From the NCBI GenBank assembly GCA_963757945.1, contig CAVWTN010000002.1, forward strand, positions 458,262 through 522,261: a stretch of 64,000 nt of DNA. Direction: 5' to 3'. A program made the translations under genes and the position numbers. Below the pieces are notes generated by a model, which was given only the letters and a program-made list of their open reading frames with translations, made no database searches and had not been told where the DNA came from. The DNA comes from Vulcanimicrobiota bacterium (GTDB taxonomy: Bacteria; Vulcanimicrobiota; Vulcanimicrobiia; Vulcanimicrobiales; Vulcanimicrobiaceae). Below, piece after piece: positions 26,626 to 39,988 of this stretch. The number at the start of each line of letters is the position of its first letter. Positions within the stretch are counted from its first letter, which is position 1.

Positions 26626-27495
26626 TCAGCTTCGCCGCAGCGCGAGCGCGAGCAACGACGGCGTCGTCCCGATCTTGCCGAACTCCCACAGGTCGATCGC
26701 GTCGACGGCGACCTTCGCGGCGCGCAGCAGCGGGGGGACCGCGCGGAAACGGAGGTTCCCGATCACGCGCCCGCGCCCGAGCGCGAGCACGCCGGCGCCG
26801 TAATCGTCGCCGCGCGGCACTTCGATCGCCGTCAACCCGGCAAACGCGGCGCCCTGCACGAGCCCGGGCGAATACAGGATCGCTTCCTCATCGACGAAGG
26901 CGGCGACGGCCCGCAAGCGCACGGCATCCGCGGCTACGCCGACCTCGACGATGCGCCGCCCGATCCCGCGCGCGTACGCGGCGAGCTGCTCGCGCCCATG
27001 GGCGTTGCCGCGCCGCCCCGTCGGGATTCCCCCGGCCGATGGCCGTGCTTCACTGACACCGAGGTACAGCGCTTCCGGGCCGAGCAGCACGTCGCCGCCG
27101 TCGAGCAATCCGGGCGCTTCGATCCGGCCGACGATCGGCACGCCCGCCGTCGCCAGCGCCGCTTCGACGGCCGCGAGTTCGGTTCGCCGGGCTACGTCGC
27201 TGGGCCGCATCAAGAACGCGCCGCCCGGGAAGACGACCGCGAGATCCGCGACCGCGCTCGCATTCGGCAAGCCGGGCGTTTGGTCGATCGCGATCGTTTG
27301 GACGCCGTTGTAGTGCAGCGTGCCTTCGAAGATCGCGAATTGCTCGAGCGCGCGCGCGAAGATCGTCCCCGATTCGCCCTGAACGGGCTTCGCCCGTTCG
27401 ATCGCAGCCGACGGCCGCACGAGCAGCGCCGCCGCCAAGCGTGCGCCGTCATCTTCGACAAAGGGGCCCTTGATCTCGTTCGCTATGCTGACCAC
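26626..27495 (-). CDS. amidinotransferase-superfamily protein (dimethylarginine dimethylaminohydrolase-like)
   Basis: DDAH/arginine-deiminase-fold similarity across the length. The usual C-terminal catalytic Cys appears to be replaced (…GKIGTTPSLL), so it may be non-catalytic. Confidence 0.5.
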   Translation of the reverse strand: MVSIANEIKGPFVEDDGARLAAALLVRPSAAIERAKPVQGESGTIFARALEQFAIFEGTLHYNGVQTIAIDQTPGLPNASAVADLAVVFPGGAFLMRPSDVARRTELAAVEAALATAGVPIVGRIEAPGLLDGGDVLLGPEALYLGVSEARPSAGGIPTGRRGNAHGREQLAAYARGIGRRIVEVGVAADAVRLRAVAAFVDEEAILYSPGLVQGAAFAGLTAIEVPRGDDYGAGVLALGRGRVIGNLRFRAVPPLLRAAKVAVDAIDLWEFGKIGTTPSLLALALRRS

Positions 27496-27550
27496 CCTCA
27501 GTAGTTAACGAGAACCCCCCTCGCGCCCCCTCGCCCCGTGCGCGACTCGT

Positions 27551-27952
27551 TCAGCCTGAGCTTGCCGAAGGGGTCGAAGGGTCTGCACCGATGTCGAGGG
27601 TGATTCGGCCGCTTCCGTTGCAGGTGCAGCAGGCGAGGCCGCTGCCGGTGGCGCGAGCGATTCCGGAGCCTCGGCAGTTCGGGCAGGCTTGGGTTCGCTT
27701 CGGCACGCTGTGAACGCCGCGTCCGCCGCAGGCGCTGCAGGTCAAGCGCTTTTGCGGCTGCACGGCGGTCCCGCGGCACTCACCGCAGCGCACGAATGGT
27801 GCGCGCACGAGAATCATGCCCTCGCCGTGGCAGATCTCGCAGCGCGAGAGCGGGGAAAGGACCCCGAATGGATCCTTTCCCGTCCCGCGGCAGAACGCGC
27901 ACGCGACCTCATGGTACGCGGAGTTCGGGGTCCGGTTAGGCTGGATTGCCAC
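27551..27952 (-). CDS. DnaJ-type zinc-finger protein (six CxxCxGxG motifs), gas-vesicle-cluster associated, paralog 1
   Basis: 133 aa with repeated CxxC(x)GxG motifs ([48 protein letters not shown]). Paralog of 29608..29985. Confidence 0.6.
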   Translation of the reverse strand: MAIQPNRTPNSAYHEVACAFCRGTGKDPFGVLSPLSRCEICHGEGMILVRAPFVRCGECRGTAVQPQKRLTCSACGGRGVHSVPKRTQACPNCRGSGIARATGSGLACCTCNGSGRITLDIGADPSTPSASSG

Positions 27953-27964
27953 GCACGACCTCCA

Positions 27965-28636
27965 CTACGCGAGTCGAACTTGTTGCGTTGCGCTATCCGC
28001 CACGAGGTAGGTCAGCTTCTCCAACTTCTCGACTTGGTCGAAGAGCGAGAGAGCCTCGTGGTAATGCCCCTCGTTTTCGAAGACGTGCCCGAGTTCAAGG
28101 AGCCGATCGAACGCCTCGCGCCCCTCGATGCTGCCGGGATAGCGCCGCAGGAGCCGCGTGTATCCGTCGATCGCGGTGTGGATCAGCCCTTGTTCGTCCC
28201 AGGCTTGCGCTGCGCGAAGCAAGGCCACTCGGCCCGATGCCGCCGCGGCCAACTTCTGCAACGTGTGCAGGAACGAGGAATGACGTTCCGCCAGCGCCGT
28301 GCGAATTTCATCGTCCGACGCATAGACGCTGAAGGTCCCCGCGGGGAGCAACGTAAGGCGCCGCTGTAACGCGTCGACGACCCGGCCGTGATCGAACGTT
28401 ATCCGCCCGAGCCACGCGTCATCCTGGGCCAGCGTGCGCACGCGCTCCTGCGAAAATTCGTCGAGCGGAACGGCGCTGACGAGTGCGGCCAACTCGCCAT
28501 ACTCGATCGCGGTGAGCGGCGCCGATCCGTTGACGCCGAACGTGTCATCGGGCAGGCGGCTCTGGGCATCGGTCTGCTTCGCGATCCCGTAAAGGTACCA
28601 CCCGTGGTCCGGGGGCAAGCGGTGTTTCGTCATCAC
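27965..28636 (-). CDS. GvpL/GvpF-family N-terminal domain fused to a TPR-like C-terminal region
   Basis: N-terminal ~135 aa aligns with the gvpL at 31578..32423 (GHAWYLYGIAK…YGELAALVSAVPLDEF…FSVYASDD). The C-terminus diverges into TPR-like helices (AWDEQGLIHTAIDGYTRLLRRYPGS…GHYHEALSLFDQV). Confidence 0.65.
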   Translation of the reverse strand: MMTKHRLPPDHGWYLYGIAKQTDAQSRLPDDTFGVNGSAPLTAIEYGELAALVSAVPLDEFSQERVRTLAQDDAWLGRITFDHGRVVDALQRRLTLLPAGTFSVYASDDEIRTALAERHSSFLHTLQKLAAAASGRVALLRAAQAWDEQGLIHTAIDGYTRLLRRYPGSIEGREAFDRLLELGHVFENEGHYHEALSLFDQVEKLEKLTYLVADSATQQVRLA

Positions 28637-29031
28637 CGGCTCCCTCCGCGTGCGACGCCGGCTCGCCTGCGCGTGTAGCTGCTCCAGATGCGCGCCGTCT
28701 CGCTGCGTCGGCCGTGGAGGCCGCCGAGCAGACCGCGAACCTGCGCCCGGTTCTGTGCCGTTTCTGCCTCGAGCAGCGTTCGCTGGCGCTGTGCCGTTGC
28801 CGCAAGCTCGCGGCCGAAACCCGCGAGCAGCGTGGCGACCGCCCGGCTACGGACGGTCACGTCCTCTCTGAGCGCCTCTCGCAGCGAGGCATCCTCGCGC
28901 AGGCGCTCGCGCCCCAGCAGCTCGAGCTTTTGCGCGATCGCCGCCCGTCTGGCTGCAATCTCTAGCGAGCGTTCATCGTGCGCCTGCTCCAACCGATCGG
29001 TCAGCGCGCGCACGTCCGCGACTATTGCCAT
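28633..29031 (-). CDS. predicted coiled-coil gas-vesicle-associated protein ('GvpX' paralog 1, family not recognised)
   Basis: 132 aa, helical and Arg/Glu/Ala-rich. The first ~100 aa are paralogous to 37420..38013 (MAIVADVRALTDRLEQ…). ATG at 29031; the ORF's upstream extension is junk. Immediately downstream of gvpA1. Confidence 0.5.
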   Translation of the reverse strand: MAIVADVRALTDRLEQAHDERSLEIAARRAAIAQKLELLGRERLREDASLREALREDVTVRSRAVATLLAGFGRELAATAQRQRTLLEAETAQNRAQVRGLLGGLHGRRSETARIWSSYTRRRAGVARGGSR

Positions 29032-29168
29032 GTCGATCTCCCGAATCATTGAAGAAAAACAGTGCGAGGGGGCGCCGGCGTCTTTGCCGCCGATCGCTAC
29101 GCACGACCGGCATGCAAGCCCCGGCGCCCTTCGCTCGAGCTCGATCGACGAGCTCTTTGCCGCTCGTG

Positions 29169-29399
29169 CTATGCGGCGGCCGCCTGCGGTGCGGCGACGG
29201 ATGCCGTGAGCCCGATCGCTTCGGCATACTTGAGGTAGGTTTCGACCGACGCGACGACGGCGCGGATTTCGATCGCGAGCAATTCGATGCCGACCAGCGA
29301 CACGCGCACCCATGCGTCGATGACGAGGCCCTTGTCCAAGATGCGATCGACGACTTCCACGAGGCTCGACGAGCCGATTGCCTTCTCTACTTGTGCCAT
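29169..29399 (-). CDS. gvpA: gas vesicle structural protein GvpA (copy 1)
   Basis: 76 aa: [64 protein letters not shown]… is the canonical GvpA core. Confidence 0.92.
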
Positions 29400-29494
29400 T
29401 CTCAGCCAAGCTCCCTGTGACGAATAGCGGCCTTGACGCATTGCCGAAGCCGCTGGTTGGGGTCCCATCGCCATCCTATCCGGCGCTCGAGAAC

Positions 29495-29543
29495 TCAACA
29501 ACACTCGATCGAGGTACTGCGGACTATCCGGACGGATACAAAT
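29495..29543 (-). promoter_or_regulatory. conserved upstream element of gvpA copy 1 (CTCGATCGAG palindrome + TATCCG-N2-CGGATA inverted repeat)
   Basis: About 48 bp nearly identical to 38510..38558 upstream of gvpA copy 2, while the flanking intergenic DNA diverges. Confidence 0.5.
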
Positions 29544-29607
29544 CCGTGCGCCCTTCGAACCACGCGGGGCGCACGCCGCAGCGCGGGATCGCGCCTGGCT
29601 GGCGGCG

Positions 29608-29985
29608 TTACGAAGCCGAACCGCTATGCAACGTCACTCTGCCGCTGCCGGTACAGGTGGAACACGACAGATCGATCTCGCTTTCCGGATCGACGCCCGT
29701 ACCTTTGCAAACCGGGCACGCTTGGTTGTTCTTCGAGACGCTCTGCACGCCGCGCCCTCCGCACGCACTGCACGTCAGACGCTTGTGCGGCTGCGCGCCG
29801 GTACCATGGCATTCGCCGCAGCGCACGAACGGCACGTGCACGATGTTCTTGCCGACGCCCTGGCACGTCTCGCAGCGCGAAAGGTCGGAAAGGAGCCCGA
29901 ACGGATCCTTACCCGTACCGCTACAGAATGCGCATTCGACGGCCTGTTCGCCTGGTTTCGGAACTGGATTAGGCATTGGCTCCAA
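29608..29985 (-). CDS. DnaJ-type zinc-finger protein (CxxCxGxG repeats), paralog 2
   Basis: 125 aa ([48 protein letters not shown]). About 50% identical to 27551..27952. Overlaps the gvpJ stop. Confidence 0.6.
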
Positions 29986-30280
29986 TCGCCTCCTCTACGC
30001 GTGCGAGTCTTTCTTTGAGTAAAAGGTTATCGGCCTCGAGACTTTCGGCGCGCGAAACCAGCGCCGAGTCGCGCTCCCACCAGTTGATCCCCATCTCTTT
30101 CGCCTTGTCCACCGATGCGATCAACAAGCGCACCTTGATGCTCAACAACTCCACCTGAACGAGGGAGATGGTGATGTCCCCGGCGATGACGATGCCCTTG
30201 TCGAGCACGCGCTCGAGGATGTCGGCCAAGTTCGTGGTCTGGATTGCACTGGCGACGCGCCGGTCGCTTGCGTTCTGCAT
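29969..30280 (-). CDS. gvpJ: gas vesicle protein GvpJ (GvpA-family)
   Basis: NLADILERVLDKGIVIAGDITISLVQVELLSIKVRLLIASVDKAKEMGI. RBS GGGAGAAGG upstream. Confidence 0.8.
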   Translation of the reverse strand: MQNASDRRVASAIQTTNLADILERVLDKGIVIAGDITISLVQVELLSIKVRLLIASVDKAKEMGINWWERDSALVSRAESLEADNLLLKERLARVEEAIGANA

Positions 30281-30303
30281 GTTCCCTTACCTTCTCCCTG
30301 TTA

Positions 30304-30633
30304 TCACAGGAGATTGCCCAGCGGTCCCAAGTTGAGATTCAAATCCTCGCCTTCCAGACCGAACCGTTCTTTGAGCTCGATCATCGCTTGCTCGAGGTTC
30401 ATGAACGTCTCGCCCATCCGCTCGACCTCGTCCGCCGTCACGCTCTCCGCTTCGATGCGCTTGATGGCCTGACGCTCGAGCAACTGGCGCAACAACTCGA
30501 TGATCGTGAGCACGAGCTTTGCCAGCCCTTGCTCCACGCGCTCCGGGTCGATATCGAGCCGATCCTCCGCGGCCCGCGCCGCGGACGACGGCGCGATCGT
30601 GTCGGGGAGATCGGTCGCATCATTCACGTTCAT
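30304..30633 (-). CDS. gvpK: gas vesicle protein GvpK
   Basis: 109 aa. EQGLAKLVLTIIELLRQLLERQAIKRIE…LNLNLGPLGNLL is the GvpK signature. Confidence 0.85.
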   Translation of the reverse strand: MNVNDATDLPDTIAPSSAARAAEDRLDIDPERVEQGLAKLVLTIIELLRQLLERQAIKRIEAESVTADEVERMGETFMNLEQAMIELKERFGLEGEDLNLNLGPLGNLL

Positions 30634-31409
30634 CGCTGTACCCTCGCCGCTATGCGGGCTCGCGAACGGTCCTCCGCCACGAAGCTGTACGGCGCGGACG
30701 GGCCGCTCAGCACCAGATCGAGTTCCGGGCGCTCGCTGCACAGGCTCGCAAACGCCCTGCGGAATCCCGGCACCGCGGCCGGATCCACGAGATACGCGGC
30801 GCTGCAGGCGATGCGCTCGCTCGCCAGCTCGGACCAACGCACTTCGCGCGCGTGGGGAGAGAGGCGCTCGTCGATGCCGTCCCGCGCCGCGCGGAGGCGC
30901 TCTTCGAGAATCTGCGCCTTCAAATGCACGCGCATCAGCCCGCGCAAGTAACGAGCGCCCGCACCGGAACCGCGAATGTTCGGCCCTGCAGGCAAAGCTG
31001 CCGCCGGCGCGCTTGCGCCGTCCCGCAGAACGGAAGACGTGGTCAGGATCGCCAGATCCAACTCCGCCATGGGGCCCAAGCGCGCCAAGTCCTCGTGCAA
31101 CTGCTCGCGCTGCCGTGCGAGCGTTTCGACGACGGCCGTCTCGCCGCGCAGTACCGTGCCGAACCGGGCAGGAAGCGCGGAGTTCCGCTGGCGTACCGCC
31201 TCGACGACGGCTTGGTGAGCGAAGAGATGCTTGGCCGTATGCTCCCAACGTTCCTGACTCACCGCGCCGGTGACGGCCGCAAGGCCTGCGCCGCGGACCA
31301 AAGCCAACGCCTCACCCTCCACGCCGCGCACGCCGGGCGCCAGCTCGGCCTGCGGCGGAACGATCGCGTAGACGTACAGGTATCGTTCGCTACGGTCGAG
31401 CGTTTCCAC
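30630..31409 (-). CDS. gvpF: gas vesicle protein GvpF/GvpL family
   Basis: N-terminal YLYVYAIV… and GvpF-family architecture. GTG start; ATGA-type overlap with gvpK. Confidence 0.75.
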   Translation of the reverse strand: METLDRSERYLYVYAIVPPQAELAPGVRGVEGEALALVRGAGLAAVTGAVSQERWEHTAKHLFAHQAVVEAVRQRNSALPARFGTVLRGETAVVETLARQREQLHEDLARLGPMAELDLAILTTSSVLRDGASAPAAALPAGPNIRGSGAGARYLRGLMRVHLKAQILEERLRAARDGIDERLSPHAREVRWSELASERIACSAAYLVDPAAVPGFRRAFASLCSERPELDLVLSGPSAPYSFVAEDRSRARIAARVQR

Positions 31410-31581
31410 GGTATTGCGGCTCCCCTACGCACAGCGCAATCACGAGTTGCAGGTCGAGGAAGAGCAGGTCGACGCCGGCGACCGAGATCGTCAGATTCCC
31501 CGCCAGCACGAGGCCCCGATCGAGGACCCGGTCGAGCAGATCGAGGAGGGTGACCTCGTCCGGCTCTGCAACGGCGCTCAT
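31390..31581 (-). CDS. gvpS: small GvpA-family gas vesicle protein (GvpS/GvpM-like)
   Basis: 63 aa. TLLDLLDRVLDRGLVLAGNLTISVAGVDLLFLDLQLVIA is a GvpA-fold core. Confidence 0.7.
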   Translation of the reverse strand: MSAVAEPDEVTLLDLLDRVLDRGLVLAGNLTISVAGVDLLFLDLQLVIALCVGEPQYRGNARP

Positions 31582-32423
31582 CGGTGCACGCTCCCTTGCT
31601 CTTCGATGGATTCAGGATCGACGAAATTGTACGGCGGCCACGGCCCGCTATATTCGACCTTGATCTCCGGGCGCAGTTGACCGATGCGCTCCACCATCTC
31701 CAAGAACGCACCTTGCTGCGCGCGCCGGACCAAGAATGTCCGGCGCAGGATCGCGAGCGTCGCTTCGCCGTCCGTGAGGCGCAGGGGCGAGAGCTCCCCG
31801 CCGGCGACCGCGAGCGAACGCAGTTCCGCGTACGCCTGGTCGCTCACGCCTGCGATCGTGTCTTCGACGTGACGCTTCAAGAGGGTCGCGATTTGGCGAT
31901 CCACGAGATAGGCGCGGCCGGCACTCGACGACGCCCGCTTCTCCAGCAACTGCGCGATCTGGGGGACGGAGCGGGAAAGGCTCTTGCGCAGGAGCGTCCG
32001 ATCGAACGTCAGCCGCACCTCGAACTCGTCGCAGCCCTCCAACCGTTGCAGGATGCGTAAGATCGAGGACTGACTTTCCGCAAGCGCCGCAAGAATGTCG
32101 TCATCGCTCGCATAGACGCTGAACAACCGCGCGGGCACGATGCCCAGGCGCTGCTGCAGCCCTTCGACGACCCGTTCGTGCTCGGAGGCGACCTGCCCGA
32201 GCCACGTATCGTCTTGCGCGAGCGAGCGCACGCGCTCCGCTTCGAAATCGGCAAGCGGAACGGCGCTCACGAGTGCGCTTAACTCCCCATAACTGATCGC
32301 GCCGACGAGCGTCGCGCCGTCCACGCCGAGGATCGCGAGCGGCAGCCGGCTGCGAACATCGCTCTCCTTCGCGATTCCGTACAGATACCACGCATGCCCG
32401 GGCGGCAATACTCGATCGATCAT
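31578..32423 (-). CDS. gvpL: gas vesicle protein GvpL/GvpF family
   Basis: 282 aa, WYLYGIAKE…GELSALVSAVPL. Start at ATG 32423, which overlaps the gvpG stop by 1 nt. Confidence 0.8.
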   Translation of the reverse strand: MIDRVLPPGHAWYLYGIAKESDVRSRLPLAILGVDGATLVGAISYGELSALVSAVPLADFEAERVRSLAQDDTWLGQVASEHERVVEGLQQRLGIVPARLFSVYASDDDILAALAESQSSILRILQRLEGCDEFEVRLTFDRTLLRKSLSRSVPQIAQLLEKRASSSAGRAYLVDRQIATLLKRHVEDTIAGVSDQAYAELRSLAVAGGELSPLRLTDGEATLAILRRTFLVRRAQQGAFLEMVERIGQLRPEIKVEYSGPWPPYNFVDPESIEEQGSVHR

Positions 32424-32671
32424 CAGAGCGACGCCTTGTATTCGCGAATCTCGTTCAAGCGCTGCAAGATGCTCGCTTCCGCCTCGCTGTACTCCGCTTC
32501 CGAGATCTCGCCCAAATCGAGTTGCAAGCTCAGCCGCATCAGCGCGCTCTCGAGGCGGCCTTCGTCGTACATCTCCGCGTCGACCGCCTCTTTGATCTTC
32601 TCGAACACAAAGAGCAGCCCGCGGGCCGGTCCCGCAACCGGCAGACACACGAGATCGGTGACCAATCCCAT
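32423..32671 (-). CDS. gvpG: gas vesicle protein GvpG
   Basis: 83 aa. MGLVTDLVCLPVAGPARGLLFVFEKIKEAVDAEMYDE…LDLGEISEAEYSEAEASIL is GvpG-like. RBS AAGGAGAG. Confidence 0.7.
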   Translation of the reverse strand: MGLVTDLVCLPVAGPARGLLFVFEKIKEAVDAEMYDEGRLESALMRLSLQLDLGEISEAEYSEAEASILQRLNEIREYKASL

Positions 32672-32673
32672 CG

Positions 32674-33477
32674 CTAGCTCTCCTTTTCCCAGGCGAGATC
32701 GACGAAATCGAACGGCGGCAGAGGCCCGACGTACTTCAGAATCAGCCGTTCGGCATTCCGCTCGGCGATCGCGTTGACGGCCGCGTCGAAGCGCGCTTCG
32801 CTTGCTTTCTCCACGAGAAACGCCGCGTTGACGATCATCATGTCCGTGAGCAGGGCGTTCGTCTTCATCTCCACGCACAGCGGTGCAAGCTCGCTCTCGA
32901 TCTCCTCGGCGTCGCGCGTGCGCAGCAGGGCCATGGCCTGCTCCACCAATTGCCCGAGCCGGATCTGCTCGAAGTGGCCCGACCCCGATACCATCTCGTC
33001 ACGCAACGAGCGGATGTCGTCCCGCGCGGCCACGATCTCGGCGAACACGCGCTCCCGTTTCCAAAGCACCTTGAGCCCGAGCTCGACTCGCCCGCGGACA
33101 TGCGCCAAGATCGCGAGCAGCTCGTCGCGCCGCGCTTCAAGAACCTGCTCGCCGACACGCGCGTCGCTCGCGGAGATCAATCCGAATTGCGCGGGGATCA
33201 CCTCGCTGAACGTGAGGATCTCTTCGAGAACGCGCTGATGCGTCAGGAGGTTCTCGCGGCTAACGTCGTAGCGAGCTGCCGGAGAGTCGCTGACGATCGC
33301 CGCGAGCTCGCCGGCCCGGACGGCGCGCACCGCGTCGCCGCGCCCGCCGACCGCGGCCGCGGCGAACGCACCGCGCCCTTCGAGCGCGGCTGCGGGAACG
33401 ATGCCGTAGACATAAACGCCGGCCGCGCCCGCGGACGTTCCCGCCTCGCTCGCGGCGAGCTTCTCGTCACTCACCAT
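32674..33477 (-). CDS. gvpF: gas vesicle protein GvpF
   Basis: 267 aa. GVYVYGIVPAAA…LAAIVSDSP… is GvpF-family. Start at ATG 33477. Confidence 0.8.
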   Translation of the reverse strand: MVSDEKLAASEAGTSAGAAGVYVYGIVPAAALEGRGAFAAAAVGGRGDAVRAVRAGELAAIVSDSPAARYDVSRENLLTHQRVLEEILTFSEVIPAQFGLISASDARVGEQVLEARRDELLAILAHVRGRVELGLKVLWKRERVFAEIVAARDDIRSLRDEMVSGSGHFEQIRLGQLVEQAMALLRTRDAEEIESELAPLCVEMKTNALLTDMMIVNAAFLVEKASEARFDAAVNAIAERNAERLILKYVGPLPPFDFVDLAWEKES

Positions 33478-35659
33478 GGGCCGCCTCTTCCGCCTGGAGG
33501 GCCGCGACGTGCGCTTCGCGCGCCTGCACGAACGCGTTCTCGAAGTGACGCCGCTCGATGACGAACGGCGTGAACGCCGCCTGGGGTTCGCGCTCGATCG
33601 ATTCGCGGATCGCGAGCATCGCCGCACGCCGGCAAAGCCCCTCGAGATCCGCGCCGACGAGGCCCTCGGTGCTCGCTGCGATGCTCTTGAGGTCCACGTC
33701 TGCACTCAACTGCCGGCCGCGCGTGTGCACGCCGAGGATCGACAGGCGCGCAGCCCGGTCCGGGGCGTGCAACGGGAGAATCACGTCGAAGCGCCCGGCG
33801 CGCAACAGCGCGGGATCGATCATGTCCGGGCGATTGGTCGCGCCGAGAATGACGACGCCGCGCAATTCCTCGATGCCGTCGAGTTCGGCGAGGAACTGCC
33901 CCACGACACGTTCCGCAACGTGCCCCCCGCCGCTCCCGTCGCCGCGGCGCGGCACGAGCGCGTCGATCTCGTCGAAGAAGACCATGCACGGCGCGGCTTG
34001 CCTGGCCTTGTGGAAGACTTCGCGGATGCCTTTCTCCGACTCGCCGACCCACTTCGAGATCAGCGCGGGCCCCTTGACCGAGATGAAATTGATGCCGCTC
34101 TCCGCCGCGGCCGCCCTCGCCACGAGCGTCTTTCCCGTTCCCGGCGGCCCGGTCAGGAGCAACCCTTTCGGTGGATTCACCTTGGCAAACGCAAAGCGGT
34201 CGGCATACGCGAGCGGCCAGGCGACCATCTCACGAATGACTTCCTTCACCTCGTCGAGCCCGCCGACGTCGTCCCACTTCACGTCCGGCAGTTCGGTGAA
34301 GACCTCGCGAATGGCCGAGGGCTCCGTCTCCGTGAGCGCATCCGTGAAGTTCCGCATCGAGATTTCGAGCTTGAGCAGCTCCTCGTAGGGAAGCTGCGGG
34401 TTCTTGAAATCGATCGTCGGGAGAGCGTTTCGCAAGCAGCTCATCGCGGCTTCGCGGCACACCCCGGCGAGATCGGCGCCGACGAAGCCATGCGTGATCG
34501 CCGCCAGCTTCTCGAGGTCCACATCCTTCGCGAGCGGCATGCCGCGCGTGTGAATCTGCAAGATCTCCAGACGCCCCACCTTGTCGGGGACGAGGACCGA
34601 GATTTCGCGATCGAAGCGCCCCGGCCGGCGCAGCGCCGGGTCGATGCTATCCGGAATGTTCGTCGCGCCGATGACGACGACGTGCCCGCGGGACTCGAGG
34701 CCGTCCATCAGGGTCAGGAGCTGCGCGACCACGCGCTTCTCGACTTCCCCTTGGACCGCTTCGCGCTTGGGCGCGATCGCGTCGATCTCGTCGATGAAGA
34801 CGATGCTCGGCGCGTGGTTCTGCGCCTCATCGAAGAGCTTGCGCAGATTTGCTTCCGACTCGCCGTAGAACTTGTGGATGATCTCCGGACCGTTGACGTG
34901 CACGAAGTGCGCGGAGGTTTCGGCTGCGACCGCTCGCGCGATCAGCGTCTTGCCGCACCCGGGCGGCCCGTAGAGCAAAACTCCCTTGGGCGGCTCGATG
35001 CCCAGACGCGCGAAGACCTCCGGGTAGCGCATCGGCAACTCGATCATCTCGCGAATCCGCGCGATCTCTCTCCCCAGGCCACCCACGTCCTCGTAGGACA
35101 CTCCCGGCGCGCGGCCTCCCAGGGTGGCATCTCCGGCGATGCGCACGACGGTGGCTCGATCGACGTAGACGGGACCGGACGGGCTCGTGTCCTTGACGAT
35201 GAAATCGACCGCCCGCGAACCGAACAGCGCGACGCGCACGCGATCGCCCACCACGAGCGGCACGTTCTCGAGCAGCGTGCCGATGTAGCGCGAATCTTGC
35301 GCGCCGAGCGCCTTGGCGGTGACGACCGGCGTGAGCGCGAGACTCGCCGCGCTGTGGTTGCCCGCCTTCTTGAGTTGCACGCTATCGTCGAGCGCCGCCT
35401 GCGCGTTCTCCCGGATGATCCCGTCGATCTGGACCAGACCCTTGCCGCGCTCGCCGGGGAACGCCGGCATGATCCGCGCCGTGGTGTTGCGTTTGCCTGC
35501 GATCTCCACGATGTCGCCGATCGCGCAACCGAGACGCTCGATATCCGCCGGATCGACGCGCGCGATCGCCCGGCCGACGTCTTTCGGAAGCGCCTCCGCA
35601 ACGCGCAGCGCGAGCGCCGCCCGCTCGCCTACCGCGCCGCTTGCTCCGGGTTGACTCAT
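33467..35659 (-). CDS. CDC48/VAT-like double-ring AAA+ ATPase (N-domain + D1 + D2) embedded in the gvp operon
   Basis: 730 aa. CDC48-type N-domain, two Walker A sites (GPPGCGKT, GPPGTGKT), two Walker B sites (IVFIDEID, MVFFDEID), and a second-region-of-homology with Arg fingers. Confidence 0.85.
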   Translation of the reverse strand: MSQPGASGAVGERAALALRVAEALPKDVGRAIARVDPADIERLGCAIGDIVEIAGKRNTTARIMPAFPGERGKGLVQIDGIIRENAQAALDDSVQLKKAGNHSAASLALTPVVTAKALGAQDSRYIGTLLENVPLVVGDRVRVALFGSRAVDFIVKDTSPSGPVYVDRATVVRIAGDATLGGRAPGVSYEDVGGLGREIARIREMIELPMRYPEVFARLGIEPPKGVLLYGPPGCGKTLIARAVAAETSAHFVHVNGPEIIHKFYGESEANLRKLFDEAQNHAPSIVFIDEIDAIAPKREAVQGEVEKRVVAQLLTLMDGLESRGHVVVIGATNIPDSIDPALRRPGRFDREISVLVPDKVGRLEILQIHTRGMPLAKDVDLEKLAAITHGFVGADLAGVCREAAMSCLRNALPTIDFKNPQLPYEELLKLEISMRNFTDALTETEPSAIREVFTELPDVKWDDVGGLDEVKEVIREMVAWPLAYADRFAFAKVNPPKGLLLTGPPGTGKTLVARAAAAESGINFISVKGPALISKWVGESEKGIREVFHKARQAAPCMVFFDEIDALVPRRGDGSGGGHVAERVVGQFLAELDGIEELRGVVILGATNRPDMIDPALLRAGRFDVILPLHAPDRAARLSILGVHTRGRQLSADVDLKSIAASTEGLVGADLEGLCRRAAMLAIRESIEREPQAAFTPFVIERRHFENAFVQAREAHVAALQAEEAAHGE

Positions 35660-36156
35660 TTCTTCTTCTCGAGGCGAACCTCGAGAATGGCATTCTTAAA
35701 GCTTCGCTGCAGGTTCGACGCATCGACCTGCGCCGGCAACAGGAGTTCCTTGGAGTATTTCCGTTCGCGACCGGCGGCCTCGAGCGTCAGGATGTCGCCC
35801 TCAACTTCGACCTTGATGTCTTCGTCCGTGACGCCCGGCAGCTCCGCCACGACCAAGACATGATCGGCTTCGTCGAAAATGTCGACGAGCGGCTCGCGCA
35901 CCTCGGAAACTTCGGGCCCGTGTGCCGTGGGGCGGATGTTGCCGAACTGCTCGATGACCGGAACGCCGCCGAGCGACTTGATCGACACGCCGTAGAGGCC
36001 GCGCAATTCACGCGGACCGCTCAGCTCGCCGCTGCGCCGGATTTCCTTGCCCTCGCCGAGCTCACCGAGCAGATCGATGAAACCGCCCAGCCCTTTGAGG
36101 ATCTCGCCGAGCCCGAGATCCGTGCGCGGATCGCTTGTCTTCCGTTTGCTGCTCAT
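35656..36156 (-). CDS. gvpH: Hsp20/alpha-crystallin family protein (GvpH-like)
   Basis: 166 aa with an alpha-crystallin domain (ADHVLVVAELPGVTDEDIKVEVEGDILTLEAAG). ATGA overlap with the CDC48-like gene. Confidence 0.75.
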   Translation of the reverse strand: MSSKRKTSDPRTDLGLGEILKGLGGFIDLLGELGEGKEIRRSGELSGPRELRGLYGVSIKSLGGVPVIEQFGNIRPTAHGPEVSEVREPLVDIFDEADHVLVVAELPGVTDEDIKVEVEGDILTLEAAGRERKYSKELLLPAQVDASNLQRSFKNAILEVRLEKKK

Positions 36157-36159
36157 CTT

Positions 36160-36459
36160 CTAGTACTCCAACGTCAGCGCATGGCGGTCACTCGCGGCAG
36201 GCGGGGCTTCGATGCCGCCGGCGATCGGGCGCGCGATCGGCCGTGATTCGAGGTCGGCGATCTGCCCGTCGACCTCGCGCAAACGCGCCTCGACGGTTTG
36301 CTGTCTTTTCCGCGCGAGCTCGACTTCGCGCACGAGCCGCCGGCGTTCGCCCGCCAGCCGCTGGAGTTGCAATGCACGGCTCACTTCGCTGCGCAACCCG
36401 ATCGACGGGGGCAGCCCGCGAAACGACCGCACGTCGTGCATGGTGCTAGGTTGCCCCAT
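36160..36459 (-). CDS. small predicted coiled-coil protein in the gvp operon (unknown)
   Basis: 99-aa ORF tightly packed between gvpN (2-nt gap) and the Hsp20 gene, with RBS GGAG. Helical Arg/Glu-rich composition. It could be spurious in this high-GC DNA. Confidence 0.4.
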   Translation of the reverse strand: MGQPSTMHDVRSFRGLPPSIGLRSEVSRALQLQRLAGERRRLVREVELARKRQQTVEARLREVDGQIADLESRPIARPIAGGIEAPPAASDRHALTLEY

Positions 36460-36461
36460 GG

Positions 36462-37391
36462 TTACTTCCGCCTTTTCGGACTGCCGGTTTCCCGGATGCG
36501 CCGCCGCGACTTTTCAGATCGATCGGAGCCGCCGCTGACGAGCACATCAGCGCACGTCTGCTCGAACGCCGGCTCTCCGGGAACCGCGCGTCCACCGGAG
36601 ATCGACAAGACCTTGGCGATCATGATGGAGCGGCGCAGCGTGGACCCTACGTGGCCGGACTCATCCCTCCAGTGATGCACGACGTCGACGATCCGTTCGG
36701 CATCCTCGAGGGGAACGCCGGACTTCGCTCGAGTGATCTCGATCTCCGTATCGCGATCGAAGCCGCTCATGTCGATCGTGATCATCCGGTCGAGCAGTGC
36801 ATCCTGCGCGCCGTGCACGCCCACGTACTCGTCGGGATTCGACGTGAAGATCGCGGAGAACGCGGGGTGAACCTTCAGATACTGCACGCCGTTCCTGCTC
36901 GTGGGCAACATGAGCAGCTTCTCTTCCAACACGGCGAGCAGGACGTTGTTCGCCTCCGCGCGCGAGCGCGAGAACTCGTCGTAAAGCAGCGTCAGCCCTT
37001 CGCGGCAGGCGACCGTCAAACGATTGTCGACCCACTGTTGCGTCACGTCCTCCTCGGTCTTGAGGACCGAGTGGACGAAGTTGTCGACGACCCTGCGGCG
37101 GCGATAGCCGGATCGCCCGCCGACAAGGTCCGATGTGCCGAACTCGTCGTCACCGCACAGCAACGCCAGCGGCCGGCCCAGGTGATGCGCGACGTGCAGC
37201 GCCAAGGTCGTTTTGCCCGAGCCGGACGGTCCGCGGAAATGCACCGGATAGCCGGCCCGGATATACGTGAGGGCCCGTGCGGTCAGGGCCCGGATGAAGT
37301 CGGTCTCAACGAAATCCGCGCGTGGCCGGCTCGTGATGACCGAACTCCCTCCGACCGCAGGCGCGCTACCGTTCAACGTGACGCTCGCCAA
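36462..37391 (-). CDS. gvpN: gas vesicle protein GvpN (MoxR-like AAA+ ATPase)
   Basis: Walker A HFRGPSGSGKTTLA, Walker B LLYDEFSR. TTG start at 37391 preceded by AGGAGG at 5-nt spacing. Confidence 0.85.
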   Translation of the reverse strand: MASVTLNGSAPAVGGSSVITSRPRADFVETDFIRALTARALTYIRAGYPVHFRGPSGSGKTTLALHVAHHLGRPLALLCGDDEFGTSDLVGGRSGYRRRRVVDNFVHSVLKTEEDVTQQWVDNRLTVACREGLTLLYDEFSRSRAEANNVLLAVLEEKLLMLPTSRNGVQYLKVHPAFSAIFTSNPDEYVGVHGAQDALLDRMITIDMSGFDRDTEIEITRAKSGVPLEDAERIVDVVHHWRDESGHVGSTLRRSIMIAKVLSISGGRAVPGEPAFEQTCADVLVSGGSDRSEKSRRRIRETGSPKRRK

Positions 37392-37419
37392 GGCGCCCTC
37401 CTCTTCTTATCGAGTGCGA

Positions 37420-38013
37420 TCAAGTTGCAAAGTAAATTTCGCGAACGTCGTCCTTACGGGCGCGGTTCTGCTCGATGAGTCCATCGATCGCATGACCGAC
37501 TCCCGCGCGCGATGCGTGGAAGTGACGCTCGATGTCGTGGATCTTCACGCCGTTTGGATGGCCGGCGAGGAACGTGAAGACCTTGTCCTGCAGAGCGGTT
37601 GAATGATGCTGGACGCTTGGTTTGGGGCCATCTTGCGTCACCGCTCTGAAGGCGTAGTAATTGCCCCAGATCCCGGCCGTCTCCACGCGATTGACGTGGA
37701 AGGCGTCAAGGAGCCGGCTGACCTGTGCCCGGTTCTCCGCCGCGTCGGCCTTGAGCTGCGCGTTCTGCTTCTTCGCCGTCGCAGCAAGCTCCCGATCGAA
37801 ACCGGCAAGCTGATCGGCGACCGACCGGCTACGGGCGACGACCTCGGTATGGAGCGCCGCTCGCAGCTCCGTCTGTTCTTGAGTCCGCTCGCGTTGGAAG
37901 CGCGAAAGCTTCTGCGAAATCGCCTGTCGTCTCGCCGCGATCTCTTGGAACCGCTCTTCGTGCGATTGCTCCAACCGATCCGTCAGTGCGCGCACGTCTG
38001 CAACTATTGCCAT
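37420..38013 (-). CDS. predicted coiled-coil gas-vesicle-associated protein ('GvpX' paralog 2) with extra C-terminal winged-helix-like domain
   Basis: 198 aa. The N-terminal ~110 aa are paralogous to 28633..29031 (MAIVADVRALTDRLEQSHEER…). C-terminal ~70 aa extension (…VFTFLAGHPNGVKIHDIERHFHASRAGVGHAIDGLIEQN…). RBS GGGGGAGA. Confidence 0.5.
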   Translation of the reverse strand: MAIVADVRALTDRLEQSHEERFQEIAARRQAISQKLSRFQRERTQEQTELRAALHTEVVARSRSVADQLAGFDRELAATAKKQNAQLKADAAENRAQVSRLLDAFHVNRVETAGIWGNYYAFRAVTQDGPKPSVQHHSTALQDKVFTFLAGHPNGVKIHDIERHFHASRAGVGHAIDGLIEQNRARKDDVREIYFAT

Positions 38014-38151
38014 CTGGATCTCCCCCGCTTGTTGCGGCGTTGCGAGAGGGGCGCCGGCGGCCTTCACGCTGCTCTCTGGGCGCGAGCAGCGTGTAGACCC
38101 CAGCGCCCTCCCTCAAGCTCGATATAGTCGAGCCTATCTCTACCGCTCGCG

Positions 38152-38382
38152 CTACGCGGCGACGGGCTGGGGTGCTGCGACCGATGCCGTAAGCCCGATC
38201 GCTTCGGCATACTTGAGATACGTCTCGACCGAGGCCACGACGGCGCGGATCTCGATAGCGAGCAACTCGATGCCGACGAGCGACACGCGCACCCATGCAT
38301 CGATGACAAGGCCCTTGTCCAGGATACGATCGACGACTTCCACGAGGCTCGATGAGCCGATTGCCTTCTCTACTTGTGCCAT
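38152..38382 (-). CDS. gvpA: gas vesicle structural protein GvpA (copy 2)
   Basis: 76 aa. Identical to copy 1 except for 2 C-terminal residues (…APQPVAA vs …APQAAAA); DNA about 88% identical, mostly synonymous changes. Confidence 0.92.
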
Positions 38383-38478
38383 TATTTAACGAAGCTCCCT
38401 GTGACAAATGGCGGCCAAGACACACTGCCGAGGCCACTGCTTGGGATTCGAGAAACCATGAACATCAGGTTTCCCTCC

Positions 38479-38558
38479 CTACGATGCATCGTAGTCGTAC
38501 GGCAGCGGCACAACAACACTCGATCGAGGTAGCGCGAGCTATCCGAACGGATACAATC
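38479..38558 (-). promoter_or_regulatory. gvpA copy-2 upstream region: 16-bp perfect palindrome CTACGATGCATCGTAG (38479..38494) plus conserved CTCGATCGAG / TATCCG-N2-CGGATA element (38510..38558)
   Basis: The conserved element is shared with 29495..29543. The 16-bp palindrome is unique to copy 2. It lies between the RR stop and gvpA2. Confidence 0.5.
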
Positions 38559-38564
38559 ATGCCG

Positions 38565-39221
38565 TCACTCCACCATTCCGACGCGCATCGCGAGGACCGC
38601 GACGTGCGTGCGATCGCGCGCGGCGAATTTTCCGATGATGCTCTGAACGTGCTTCTTGACGGTCACTTCAGCAAGACCGAGCTCGTCGCCGATGGCGCGA
38701 TTCGTCTTTCCGTCGACCAAAAGATCGAGCACCATTCGCTCGCGCTCGGTGAGATCGATCCCGGCCTTCTTCGCGGCGTTCGCCGGCGCCAGCGCCTCGT
38801 CCGCAAGCGCGCGCCGGATGACCGCATCTCTCACGACGATGTTGCCTTGACTGACTGCGGTGACGGTATGATACAAGAGATCGCGCGAGCAATCTTTGAG
38901 CAAATAGCCTGCCGCCCCGGCACACACCGCGCTCGTCACGAACGCATCGTCGCCGTAGCTGCTCATCATGATGACGGCGGTATCCCCGAAGGCTTCCTTG
39001 ATGCGACGCGCCGCATCCAAGCCGCCCATGCCCGGCATGCGCACGTCCATCAACACGACGTTCGGCCGCAGCCGTTCCACGCTCGCGATCGCGCTCTTTC
39101 CATCCTCCGCCTCGCCGACGACCTCGATCGCAGGATACGTCTCGAGCATGGCCCGCACGCCCTCGCGAACGACGAGATGGTCATCGACCAGCAGGACGGA
39201 GATGCGCGGCGTTGCGCTCAT
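38565..39221 (-). CDS. LuxR/NarL-family response regulator (REC + HTH)
   Basis: 219 aa. Receiver domain LLVDDH…VVLMDVRMPGMGG; C-terminal LuxR HTH (LTERERMVLDLLVDGKTNRAIGDELGLAEVTVKKH). Start at ATG 39221. Confidence 0.85.
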   Translation of the reverse strand: MSATPRISVLLVDDHLVVREGVRAMLETYPAIEVVGEAEDGKSAIASVERLRPNVVLMDVRMPGMGGLDAARRIKEAFGDTAVIMMSSYGDDAFVTSAVCAGAAGYLLKDCSRDLLYHTVTAVSQGNIVVRDAVIRRALADEALAPANAAKKAGIDLTERERMVLDLLVDGKTNRAIGDELGLAEVTVKKHVQSIIGKFAARDRTHVAVLAMRVGMVE

Positions 39222-39988
39222 CGCAAATGCTCCCGGGATTCGCTCGCCACGAACGAAGGCGCGCCGAGCGCGAGCGACGCCGGGACGATCACGGTCGTCG
39301 CGGTGCCCTTGCCTGGGGCGCTTTCCACGGTCAACGTGCCGTCGAGGAGTTCCGCACGCTTGGTCATGCTCAGCACGCCGAAATGCCGCGGTGCACGCTC
39401 TCCGATCAGCGTGGCGACATCGAAACCGGCGCCGTCGTCGAGCACGGTCCATTGGATCGTATCGCCTACGCGACGGAGCGTGGCCACGATCCGCGATGCA
39501 TTTGCATGTTTGACGACGTTTGTAATCGCCTCGTGAACGATGCGATAGAGCGCCGTCTCCACTTCCTTGGGAAAGTGCAGCGGAGCGAGTTCGTAATGAA
39601 CCGCCAGACCGTGGCTCTCGCGCAGCTCGTCCAGTTCGTGCTGGATTGTCGACACGAGCCCGACGTCGTCGAGCGCCGCCGGCCGCAGGCAGGCGACGAC
39701 CTCTCTGGCCTCCTGAAGTGCCTTGCGAACGCAACTCCCGGCACGATTCACGCTCGCCCGAACGTCGTCCGGCAAATTCGATCGTGCAACCACGACTTGA
39801 AGCTGCTGGAAGGCCGCGGTCAGCGTTTGCGTGAGACCATCGTGGATGTCCAAGCAAATTCGCTCGCGCTCCCGTTCCTGCGCCTCAAGCGTCTTCTGCA
39901 ACAGATAACGAACGCGTTGCTCCTGCTCTTGCAAAGCAGTGCGCAAGCCTGCGTCGTCGGCCTTCCTCTGCGCACTTATCTCAGACAT
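39218..39988 (-). CDS. sensor histidine kinase, HisKA_3 + HATPase_c, no TM or recognisable sensor domain
   Basis: 256 aa. H-box LDIHDGLTQTL about 45 aa from the N-terminus; ATPase motifs (ITNVVKHANA, DDGAGF, GLLSM). 4-bp overlap with the RR gene. Confidence 0.8.
   Translation of the reverse strand: MSEISAQRKADDAGLRTALQEQEQRVRYLLQKTLEAQERERERICLDIHDGLTQTLTAAFQQLQVVVARSNLPDDVRASVNRAGSCVRKALQEAREVVACLRPAALDDVGLVSTIQHELDELRESHGLAVHYELAPLHFPKEVETALYRIVHEAITNVVKHANASRIVATLRRVGDTIQWTVLDDGAGFDVATLIGERAPRHFGVLSMTKRAELLDGTLTVESAPGKGTATTVIVPASLALGAPSFVASESREHLR

Follow-up and report, generated by a model that had tools for sequence, protein, structure and literature searches.

A predicted CDC48/VAT-type unfoldase paired with a GvpH-like small heat-shock protein is a conserved accessory component of bacterial gas-vesicle gene clusters

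In a 2022 review of gas vesicles, GvpN is the ATP-hydrolyzing component, current models assign the energy-dependent step to GvpN alone, and the haloarchaeal gas-vesicle (gvp) clusters covered contain no CDC48 gene (PMC9501494). Castillo and Saier (2010; PMC2963123) described ArsA and Hsp20 in bacterial gvp clusters and never mentioned a CDC48 gene. VAT of Thermoplasma acidophilum (PDB 5G4F, 5G4G, 5VC7) and archaeal Cdc48 have an N-domain followed by two AAA modules, D1 and D2. Here we analyzed a 64,000-nt stretch of a Vulcanimicrobiota bacterium genome (GenBank assembly GCA_963757945.1, contig CAVWTN010000002.1, positions 458,262 to 522,261 of the forward strand; hereafter the window), in which a gvp operon encodes a CDC48 protein of this same architecture. 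Taken with its homologs, the protein represents a bacterial CDC48 subfamily that is a conserved accessory component of gvp clusters, predicted to be co-transcribed with the assembly genes. The genes and domains at the center of this conclusion are listed here, with coordinates in the window and refined start codons.

36462 to 37391, minus strand: gvpN, a MoxR-like single AAA+ protein (TIGR02640, 332.7 bits against a cut-off of 266.8)
35656 to 36156, minus strand: hsp20, a 166-aa small heat-shock protein, GvpH-like (PF00011, PF05455, NF041800)
33467 to 35659, minus strand: cdc48, a 730-aa CDC48/VAT-family double-ring AAA+ ATPase (TIGR01243)
35132 to 35608, minus strand: CDC48 N-domain (CDC48_N and CDC48_2; PF02359, PF02933), residues 18–176
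34280 to 35104, minus strand: D1 AAA module, with Walker A GPPGCGKT (K237), Walker B IVFIDEIDA (E291) and Arg fingers RRPGRFDRE
within 34280 to 35104, minus strand: D1 pore loop K-F-Y-G (F264, Y265)
33560 to 34279, minus strand: D2 AAA module, with Walker A GPPGTGKT (K510), Walker B MVFFDEIDA (E564) and Arg fingers LRAGRFD
within 33560 to 34279, minus strand: D2 pore loop K-W-V-G (W537, V538)
32674 to 33477, minus strand: gvpF1 (PF06386, 229 bits), overlapping the cdc48 stop by 11 nt

The cdc48 open reading frame (ORF; 33467–35659, minus strand) starts with ATG and encodes 730 aa. Its product scores 908.9 bits against the NCBIfam model TIGR01243, “CDC48 family AAA ATPase” (cut-off 802.65), over residues 17–710, and its Pfam domains are CDC48_N, CDC48_2, two PF00004 AAA modules and two AAA_lid_3 domains. 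The N-terminal double-psi barrel and beta-clam are matched by PF02359 (84 bits, residues 18–99) and PF02933 (45.6 bits, residues 121–176). A preliminary description of this DNA had read the product as a CDC48 N-domain with two complete AAA modules, encoded between gvpF and an alpha-crystallin (Hsp20) gene and in addition to GvpN; the profile scores and the presence of gvpN at 36462–37391 bear this out. Across 145 members of the gvp-linked clade described below, conservation extends to the Walker A and B motifs, the Arg fingers, and the aromatic pore loop of each ring. Aromatic pore loops in both rings are also found in the processive unfoldase VAT. The best solved relative is Thermoplasma VAT (5g4f, 736 bits), ahead of p97 and Cdc48, with substrate-engaged VAT (5vc7) third among the PDB matches. 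No chain under the name of the actinobacterial Cdc48-like proteins Cpa or Msm0858 was among the 60 best PDB matches. The window CDC48 is approximately 50–56% identical to archaeal homologs and shares the aromatic pore loops and the Walker and Arg-finger motifs with VAT, but differs from VAT and archaeal Cdc48 in being bacterial, in lying in a gvp operon, in having no HbYX-type tail, in its diverged N-domain, and in forming a separate clade. By its motifs and domains, this 730-aa ATPase belongs to the CDC48/VAT family and is predicted to be a working unfoldase.

GvpN is likewise a gvp-cluster ATPase and is encoded by a separate gene in the same operon. It is, however, a 309-aa single-module protein of the MoxR/AAA_5 type, whereas CDC48 is a double-ring unfoldase of the classic clade, and the GvpN family TIGR02640 falls outside the 25 best-scoring of the 47 NCBIfam families matched by CDC48. 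Because gvpN is also present in the window, CDC48 is an addition to GvpN and not a replacement, and because both ATPases co-occur in clusters, neither appears to stand in for the other. An anti-phage assignment (IteA/IetA, TRIP13) fails, with NF042959 reaching 246 bits against a cut-off of 510. A role in a defense system was rejected as well, as the PADLOC matches reflect generic per-module AAA similarity and the partner genes are absent. An ATG-initiated ORF of 795 aa that runs antisense over cdc48 and hsp20 (33476–35863, plus strand) was dismissed as a high-G+C artifact; since the homology (E = 2e-273) lies on the minus-strand frame, we consider it a by-product of the 66% G+C of this region.

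The C-terminus of the window protein (...AAHGE) does not contain an HbYX motif, which mediates docking to the 20S proteasome. Only one of 145 gvp-clade members has Tyr or Phe at position −2, versus 25 of 54 archaeal sequences. The missing HbYX-type tail speaks for a protein that unfolds its clients on its own and against one that caps the proteasome, and on the same grounds we disfavor a proteasome-activator reading. The tail also bears on a regulatory role, in which the unfoldase would remove a regulator of gvp expression or feed it to a protease, as in the haloarchaeal loss of GvpE through GvpD. A response regulator gene does flank the window cluster, and there is a ClpP gene near one related cluster (L085). 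However, no protease gene is conserved in the gvp clusters examined, CDC48 has neither an HbYX motif nor homology to GvpD, and its conserved partners are chaperones, not regulators, all of which makes a regulatory role very improbable.

The region of CDC48 that differs most between clades is the N-domain: gvp-clade members share an identity of 0.52 with one another and of 0.34 with archaeal sequences. The corresponding values are 0.79 within the gvp clade and 0.66 between clades for D1, and 0.69 and 0.58 for D2. Position 77 is Gln in 97% of the gvp clade versus Arg in 100% of the archaeal sequences. A search for clade-specific residues returned two clean positions only, Q77 and R201, which is too few to indicate a binding site.

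The intergenic distances from gvpN through gvpL are +2, +3, −4, −11, +2, and −1 nt. Because these distances are short or negative, the gvpN–gvpL stretch is likely one operon, with translational coupling likely. The stop codon of hsp20 and the start codon of cdc48 overlap as ATGA, and the gvpF ATG at 33477 lies 11 nt inside cdc48 (ATGGTGAGTGA), a junction that is not of the ATGA type. Of the ATGA overlaps that had been proposed for both sides of cdc48, the one with hsp20 therefore stands, while the junction with gvpF is an 11-nt overlap. As judged from these junctions, cdc48 is probably translationally coupled on both sides, with the upstream Hsp20/GvpH-like gene and with the downstream gvpF. 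A consensus scan of positions 27000–39500 for promoters and terminators found sites no more frequently than in shuffled sequence, so the operon is called on the intergenic distances alone.

The gene neighborhood is conserved in the order gvpN-...-hsp20-(arsA)-cdc48-gvpF. A scan of representative genomes with the CDC48 protein yielded 80 loci, 28 bacterial and 52 archaeal, and gvp genes were present in the flanks of all 28 bacterial loci and of none of the 52 archaeal loci. The gvp-linked loci come from Chloroflexota, Actinomycetota, several Desulfobacterota lineages, Nitrospirota, Cloacimonetes, many Bacteroidota, Planctomycetia, an alphaproteobacterium, and Thermotogae, and the gvp-linked Hsp20-CDC48 pair spans approximately 12 bacterial phyla. 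For the matches from protein searches, contexts were looked up in six cases, and all six lie inside gvp clusters: the nearest relative (83% identity), a Chloroflexota metagenome-assembled genome (MAG), Ca. Hakubella, Desulfofundulus sp. TPOSR (whose record is not labeled as a MAG), a Coprothermobacterota MAG, and an 8.2-Mb deltaproteobacterial contig. The nearest named CDC48 homologs are from Chloroflexota MAGs, at approximately 70% identity. On plasmids of two cultured methanotrophs, Methylocella tundrae T4 and Methylosinus sp. C49, the gene order is gvpA-gvpN-gvpF-gvpG-gvpJ-...-Hsp20-hypothetical-CDC48.

We also scanned metagenomes with GvpA as the anchor, which gave 80 loci, 23 of them holding both gvpN and gvpF. 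CDC48 is present in 19 of these 23, and three of the four negative loci end at a contig edge on the side where the sister architecture has the gene. The same arrangement is found on 27 gvpA-anchored metagenome contigs. Neighbors were then counted over 59 gvp-linked CDC48 genes. Where a neighbor could be recognized, Hsp20 lies upstream of cdc48 in 47 of 52 cases (22 directly, 25 with one arsA between), and gvpF lies directly downstream in 49 of 53. The 730-aa CDC48 is thus co-located with gvpA, gvpN, gvpF, gvpG, and gvpK in distantly related taxa, with its orientation and position conserved, which is one of the marks by which a gvp accessory gene is defined here. The possibility that the gene is a random neighbor, raised in the preliminary description as a way to refute its claim, was examined here and the claim survived, as close bacterial homologs are gvp-linked in every context examined. 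Two close homologs, P0012 from a Chloroflexota MAG (1210 aa) and P0085 (1229 aa), contain intein and LAGLIDADG endonuclease domains (PF14890, PF14528), and by these domains are CDC48 genes interrupted by inteins.

Phylogeny separates the gvp-linked proteins from other CDC48s. In a neighbor-joining tree of 199 sequences, all gvp-linked proteins and all 115 unclassified protein matches form one group, with the 54 archaeal sequences outside it, and the gvp clade has a bootstrap value of 98/100 in an 89-taxon subset. Plasmid-borne CDC48 genes of Rhizobium leguminosarum, R. grahamii, and Methylobacterium radiotolerans have no gvp genes within ±8 kb. With these added, the gvp-linked sequences, including those of Methylocella and Methylosinus, were again split from all others at 98/100. 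The proteins on R. leguminosarum pR132502 and M. radiotolerans pMRAD01 have the same family name and architecture as the window CDC48, at approximately 50% identity, but differ in their lack of gvp neighbors and in their placement outside the gvp clade, among archaeal sequences. The non-gvp alphaproteobacterial CDC48s as a group fall with archaeal sequences, the nearest being Micrarchaeota (L168, L169, L171). The comparison with non-gvp homologs thus gave a 98%-bootstrap clade that stands apart even from non-gvp CDC48s of the same class, and by these trees the CDC48 clade is predicted by gene context, not by host taxonomy.

Pairwise distances between CDC48 proteins are matched by those between GvpN proteins (Mantel r = 0.92, n = 43) and between Hsp20 proteins (r = 0.93, n = 47); the match with GvpF is weaker (r = 0.52). 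Because CDC48 distances track GvpN and Hsp20, the ATPase appears to have long traveled with the gvp cluster. These values also bear on an alternative substrate, namely complexes of the GvpF/L/G/K type, which CDC48 would remodel during accessory or nucleation steps so that factors are reused or GvpA is released from GvpF. The position of gvpF directly downstream in 49 of 53 loci fits such a role, as does the J domain on the downstream GvpF in sister clusters, and GvpF is reported to be the sole Gvp that binds GvpA, with GvpL as a binding platform (PMC9501494). Nevertheless, CDC48 distances correlate far less with GvpF than with GvpN or Hsp20 (approximately 0.92), and the pairing with a small heat-shock protein points to aggregation-prone clients. 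We consider GvpF/L/G/K complexes a doubtful substrate.

Hsp20 genes also occur directly upstream of CDC48 genes in two archaeal loci with no gvp genes, L028 (303–647 and 819–2957) and L032 (9548–9892 and 10001–12148), which come from an unclassified archaeon and a Nitrososphaerales MAG. Archaeal sequences of this type are among those nearest the gvp clade. This suggests that the Hsp20-CDC48 pair predates its recruitment into gvp clusters, and we infer a probable archaeal origin, in which both genes would have been gained together from archaea before their recruitment. The same loci, along with the non-gvp CDC48s on rhizobial plasmids, could be taken to mean that this is a general stress chaperone pair, next to gvp genes by chance or as a hitch-hiker on a mobile island. 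Against this, every bacterial clade member examined is inside a gvp cluster, in a conserved position and across approximately 12 phyla, and the gvp clade is set apart from non-gvp genes at 98/100 and co-diverges with GvpN. The probability we give to a general stress pair is close to negligible, and a chance neighborhood is contradicted by the synteny and phylogeny together.

The hsp20 product matches PF00011 (HSP20) at 33 bits against a gathering score of 20.8. It also passes the gathering score of PF05455 (GvpH), at 24.3 bits against 22, with only profile positions 99–166 of 177 matched, so that its likeness to haloarchaeal GvpH is limited to the alpha-crystallin part. Haloarchaeal GvpH is reported to keep GvpM from aggregating (PMC9501494), a precedent for an anti-aggregation role of an Hsp20-like protein. 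The window protein differs from GvpH in scoring far better as an archaeal Hsp20-type protein (NF041800, 137.1 bits, just under the cut-off of 140), which is still its best-scoring family by far, and its best PDB match is 4rzk (E = 1e-18). Since the best family is archaeal Hsp20 and the best structure is 4rzk, these matches point to an archaeal-type small heat-shock protein. The gvp-linked Hsp20 is conserved over its full length in 50 gvp loci, including an N-terminal DLGLGGLFKG..VDL motif and central FGNI and REP..DVFDE segments. The Methylosinus counterpart is annotated as GvpH by PGAP.

What the sequences establish directly is the family, the intact motifs, the place in the operon, the conserved synteny, and the separate clade. 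As to what the protein acts on, in which direction (assembly quality control), and whether it cooperates with Hsp20, we infer, with a probability of roughly 0.55, that CDC48 and Hsp20 form a stand-alone unfoldase/disaggregase pair acting on aggregation-prone GvpA-family proteins. Hsp20 would keep these hydrophobic proteins (GvpA, GvpJ, and relatives) or their off-pathway assemblies in an extractable state. The CDC48 hexamer would then use ATP to thread its clients past the aromatic pore loops of both rings (K-F-Y-G in D1 and K-W-V-G in D2), acting alone and not as a proteasome cap, and would hand them over, unfolded and ready for assembly, to GvpF/L, GvpN, and the growing shell. The result would be a pair of small heat-shock protein and AAA+ disaggregase dedicated to one organelle. 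In disaggregation by small heat-shock proteins and ClpB/Hsp104, clients bound by a holdase stay accessible to a double-ring AAA+ protein, which extracts them by threading. The functional logic proposed for Hsp20-CDC48 would be the same, by analogy, but the window CDC48 belongs to another AAA+ clade, has no ClpB-type match, and is tied to a single gene cluster.

Several points weigh against this proposal. The function of CDC48 is assigned through guilt by association, and vesicle production by the host is itself a prediction. The clusters of Halobacterium, Anabaena, B. megaterium, and Serratia have GvpN as their sole AAA+ protein (PMC9501494), and because these model clusters build vesicles in that way, CDC48 cannot be a universal requirement. 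Its client may be a complex of accessory proteins instead of GvpA-family proteins, and there may be another protease partner despite the absence of HbYX. All of the trees are neighbor-joining trees, and the sample of non-gvp bacterial CDC48s, at three plasmid genes, is small.

In addition, gene context cannot separate assembly quality control from disassembly or recycling. As a disassembly motor, CDC48 would extract GvpA from collapsed or unwanted vesicles, working on the protein lattice like a p97-type segregase to clear debris, recycle subunits, and perhaps actively lower buoyancy. The conserved gvp linkage is shared by both possibilities, CDC48/p97 enzymes are classically known for extracting subunits from stable assemblies, and the missing proteasome-docking motif fits the release of subunits over their degradation. 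However, cdc48 sits in the middle of a biosynthetic operon, between gvpN and gvpF and with overlapping codons, and would be made together with the assembly factors, not under regulation of its own. Its partner holdase and targeting chaperones (Hsp20, ArsA, J-domain GvpF) also fit the handling of subunits before assembly. Both observations are compatible with disassembly, which we regard as unlikely, and we favor the assembly-side role of the Hsp20-CDC48 pair.

The window has a G+C content of approximately 67%, and its gvp cluster occupies the minus strand from approximately 38382 to 27551. All gvp gene assignments are above Pfam or NCBIfam thresholds. The remaining features of the cluster and its upstream flank are as follows.

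38565 to 39230, minus strand: LuxR/GerE-type response regulator (PF00072, 96 bits; PF00196, 55 bits), directly upstream of gvpA1
38152 to 38382, minus strand: gvpA1, major shell protein (NF006874, 124 bits; PF00741, 61 bits)
37420 to 38013, minus strand: Cx1, a 197-aa coiled-coil-like protein after gvpA1, starting MAIVADV... (no family above threshold)
36160 to 36459, minus strand: orf99, a 99-aa protein between gvpN and hsp20 (no family)
32423 to 32671, minus strand: gvpG (PF05120, 71 bits; also matched by tblastn with the GvpG of L081)
31578 to 32423, minus strand: gvpL/F, second copy (PF06386, 164 bits)
30630 to 31409, minus strand: gvpL/F, third copy (PF06386, 160 bits)
30304 to 30633, minus strand: gvpK (PF05121, 116 bits)
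29969 to 30280, minus strand: gvpJ, a GvpA-family minor protein (PF00741, 64 bits)
29608 to 29985, minus strand: zinc-finger protein 1, with DnaJ central CXXCXGXG repeats and no J domain (PF00684, 52.3 bits)
29169 to 29399, minus strand: gvpA2 (PF00741, 61 bits), 97% identical to gvpA1
28633 to 29031, minus strand: Cx2, a shorter paralog of Cx1 after gvpA2, 41% identical to Cx1
27965 to 28636, minus strand: N-terminal half of GvpL/F fused to TPR repeats (PF06386, 69 bits, profile positions 1–112; TPR_6, TPR_14)
27551 to 27952, minus strand: zinc-finger protein 2, DnaJ central domain type (PF00684, 38.1 bits), 56% identical to zinc-finger protein 1

The response regulator is a candidate regulator of the gvp cluster. 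Similar response regulators flank the gvp clusters of L083 and L084, and response regulators together with sensor kinases are also seen beside the clusters of L083, L084, L166, L167, and L170. Both gvpA copies are followed by a protein without family assignment starting MAIVADVRALTDRLEQ (Cx1, Cx2), which holds the place of a GvpC-like outer protein; in Bacteroidota loci, weak Cx homologs also follow gvpA. The orf99 product has no Pfam, NCBIfam, or PADLOC match. It lies +2 and +3 nt from its neighbors and has a tblastn homolog at the same position in the closest relative (L082, 1037–1321). In L083 and L166, gvpN is likewise followed by a short ORF without annotation (97 and 104 aa), comparable to orf99 in size and place. 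A gap of 168 nt (31410–31577) separates the second and third gvpL/F genes, and in L082 a 93-aa GvpA-family gene follows the second gvpL/F gene. The window may have lost a GvpA-family gene here, or the start of gvpF3 may be miscalled.

The two DnaJ-type zinc-finger proteins noted in the preliminary description are confirmed by PF00684, at 52.3 and 38.1 bits. Their homologs are found in most related gvp loci of many phyla, usually adjoining gvpN, with “Zn” matches in most of L001–L027 and L086–L165. Sister clusters contain extra chaperone-type genes, comprising ArsA/Get3-like ATPases, DnaJ-type zinc-finger proteins, GvpF-J-domain fusions, and one to three Hsp70 genes, by which they may extend the Hsp20-CDC48 pair. 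A GvpL/F with a J domain lies downstream of cdc48 in L083 (6344–7426), L084 (12224–13267), L085 (871–1923), and L166 (12168–13187), and Hsp70 genes flank the clusters in L084, L085, and L166. The fusion implies that Hsp70 would be recruited to GvpF in the clusters that have it; no GvpF-J-domain fusion is present in the window. An ArsA/Get3-like gene is often located exactly between hsp20 and cdc48, in L081 (9001–9948) and in 25 other loci. In some clusters, the ArsA is instead a tandem two-domain protein encoded further downstream. The ArsA/Get3-like ATPases resemble CDC48 in being an extra ATPase found with Hsp20 in gvp clusters, but their fold and mechanism are different, and there is no arsA within the 64-kb window. 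Because sister clusters add ArsA/Get3-like, Hsp70, and GvpF-J-domain genes, and because the zinc-finger proteins are co-conserved, a putative chaperone set dedicated to gas vesicles is supported. The preliminary description had gone further, to a dedicated unfold/hold/refold system for GvpA. The additional chaperone genes of related clusters favor a dedicated set, while the unfold/hold/refold mechanism and GvpA as its substrate are predictions from gene context.

The preliminary description had also suggested that a CDC48-type unfoldase was new to gas-vesicle biogenesis. We found no paper linking a CDC48-type ATPase to gas vesicles in full-text literature searches, which did not cover most subscription journals, so a prior mention is possible. 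The one gas-vesicle paper found to mention CDC48 names it as a contaminant bound non-specifically to Ni-NTA (PMC6107691). For Ca. Hakubella, whose gvp cluster carries cdc48, the published description noted only hsp20 (PMC7325909), and the public annotation of these genes is generic, “CDC48 family AAA ATPase”. What is new here is a predicted gas-vesicle-dedicated variant of the CDC48/VAT unfoldase paired with a GvpH-like small heat-shock protein, which, judged by its recurrence, is a real and non-random feature.

How the hydrophobic, amyloid-like GvpA stays soluble and enters the growing gas-filled shell is an open question. Our results point to a second motor, of a mechanistically well-understood type, in the form of a VAT-like unfoldase with a dedicated small heat-shock protein. 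Work on gas vesicles may be what bacterial CDC48-family ATPases chiefly do. Heterologous expression of gas vesicles is reported to provoke proteotoxic stress (PMC12848028). Five of 15 native gvp clusters gave vesicles in E. coli (PMC10344784), and the 23-kb cluster of Desulfobacterium vacuolatum made vesicles there (PMC10344784, supplement); a second protein search, with a Desulfobacteraceae CDC48 and aimed at this species, returned MAGs only. CDC48-Hsp20 may be a practical lever for gas-vesicle engineering. A broader possibility, which we entertain only tentatively, is that the Hsp20-CDC48 pair, often with ArsA, zinc-finger proteins, J-domain GvpF, and Hsp70, forms a core proteostasis machine in most gas-vesicle systems of environmental bacteria, pulls GvpA from the shell lattice as an ATP-driven motor, or both. 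Such a core machine would have been missed because the four model clusters lack the pair. If true, it might help account for the failure of many native clusters to assemble in heterologous hosts, and a motor that pulls on GvpA would mean active, reversible control of a structure usually regarded as removable by collapse or dilution only.

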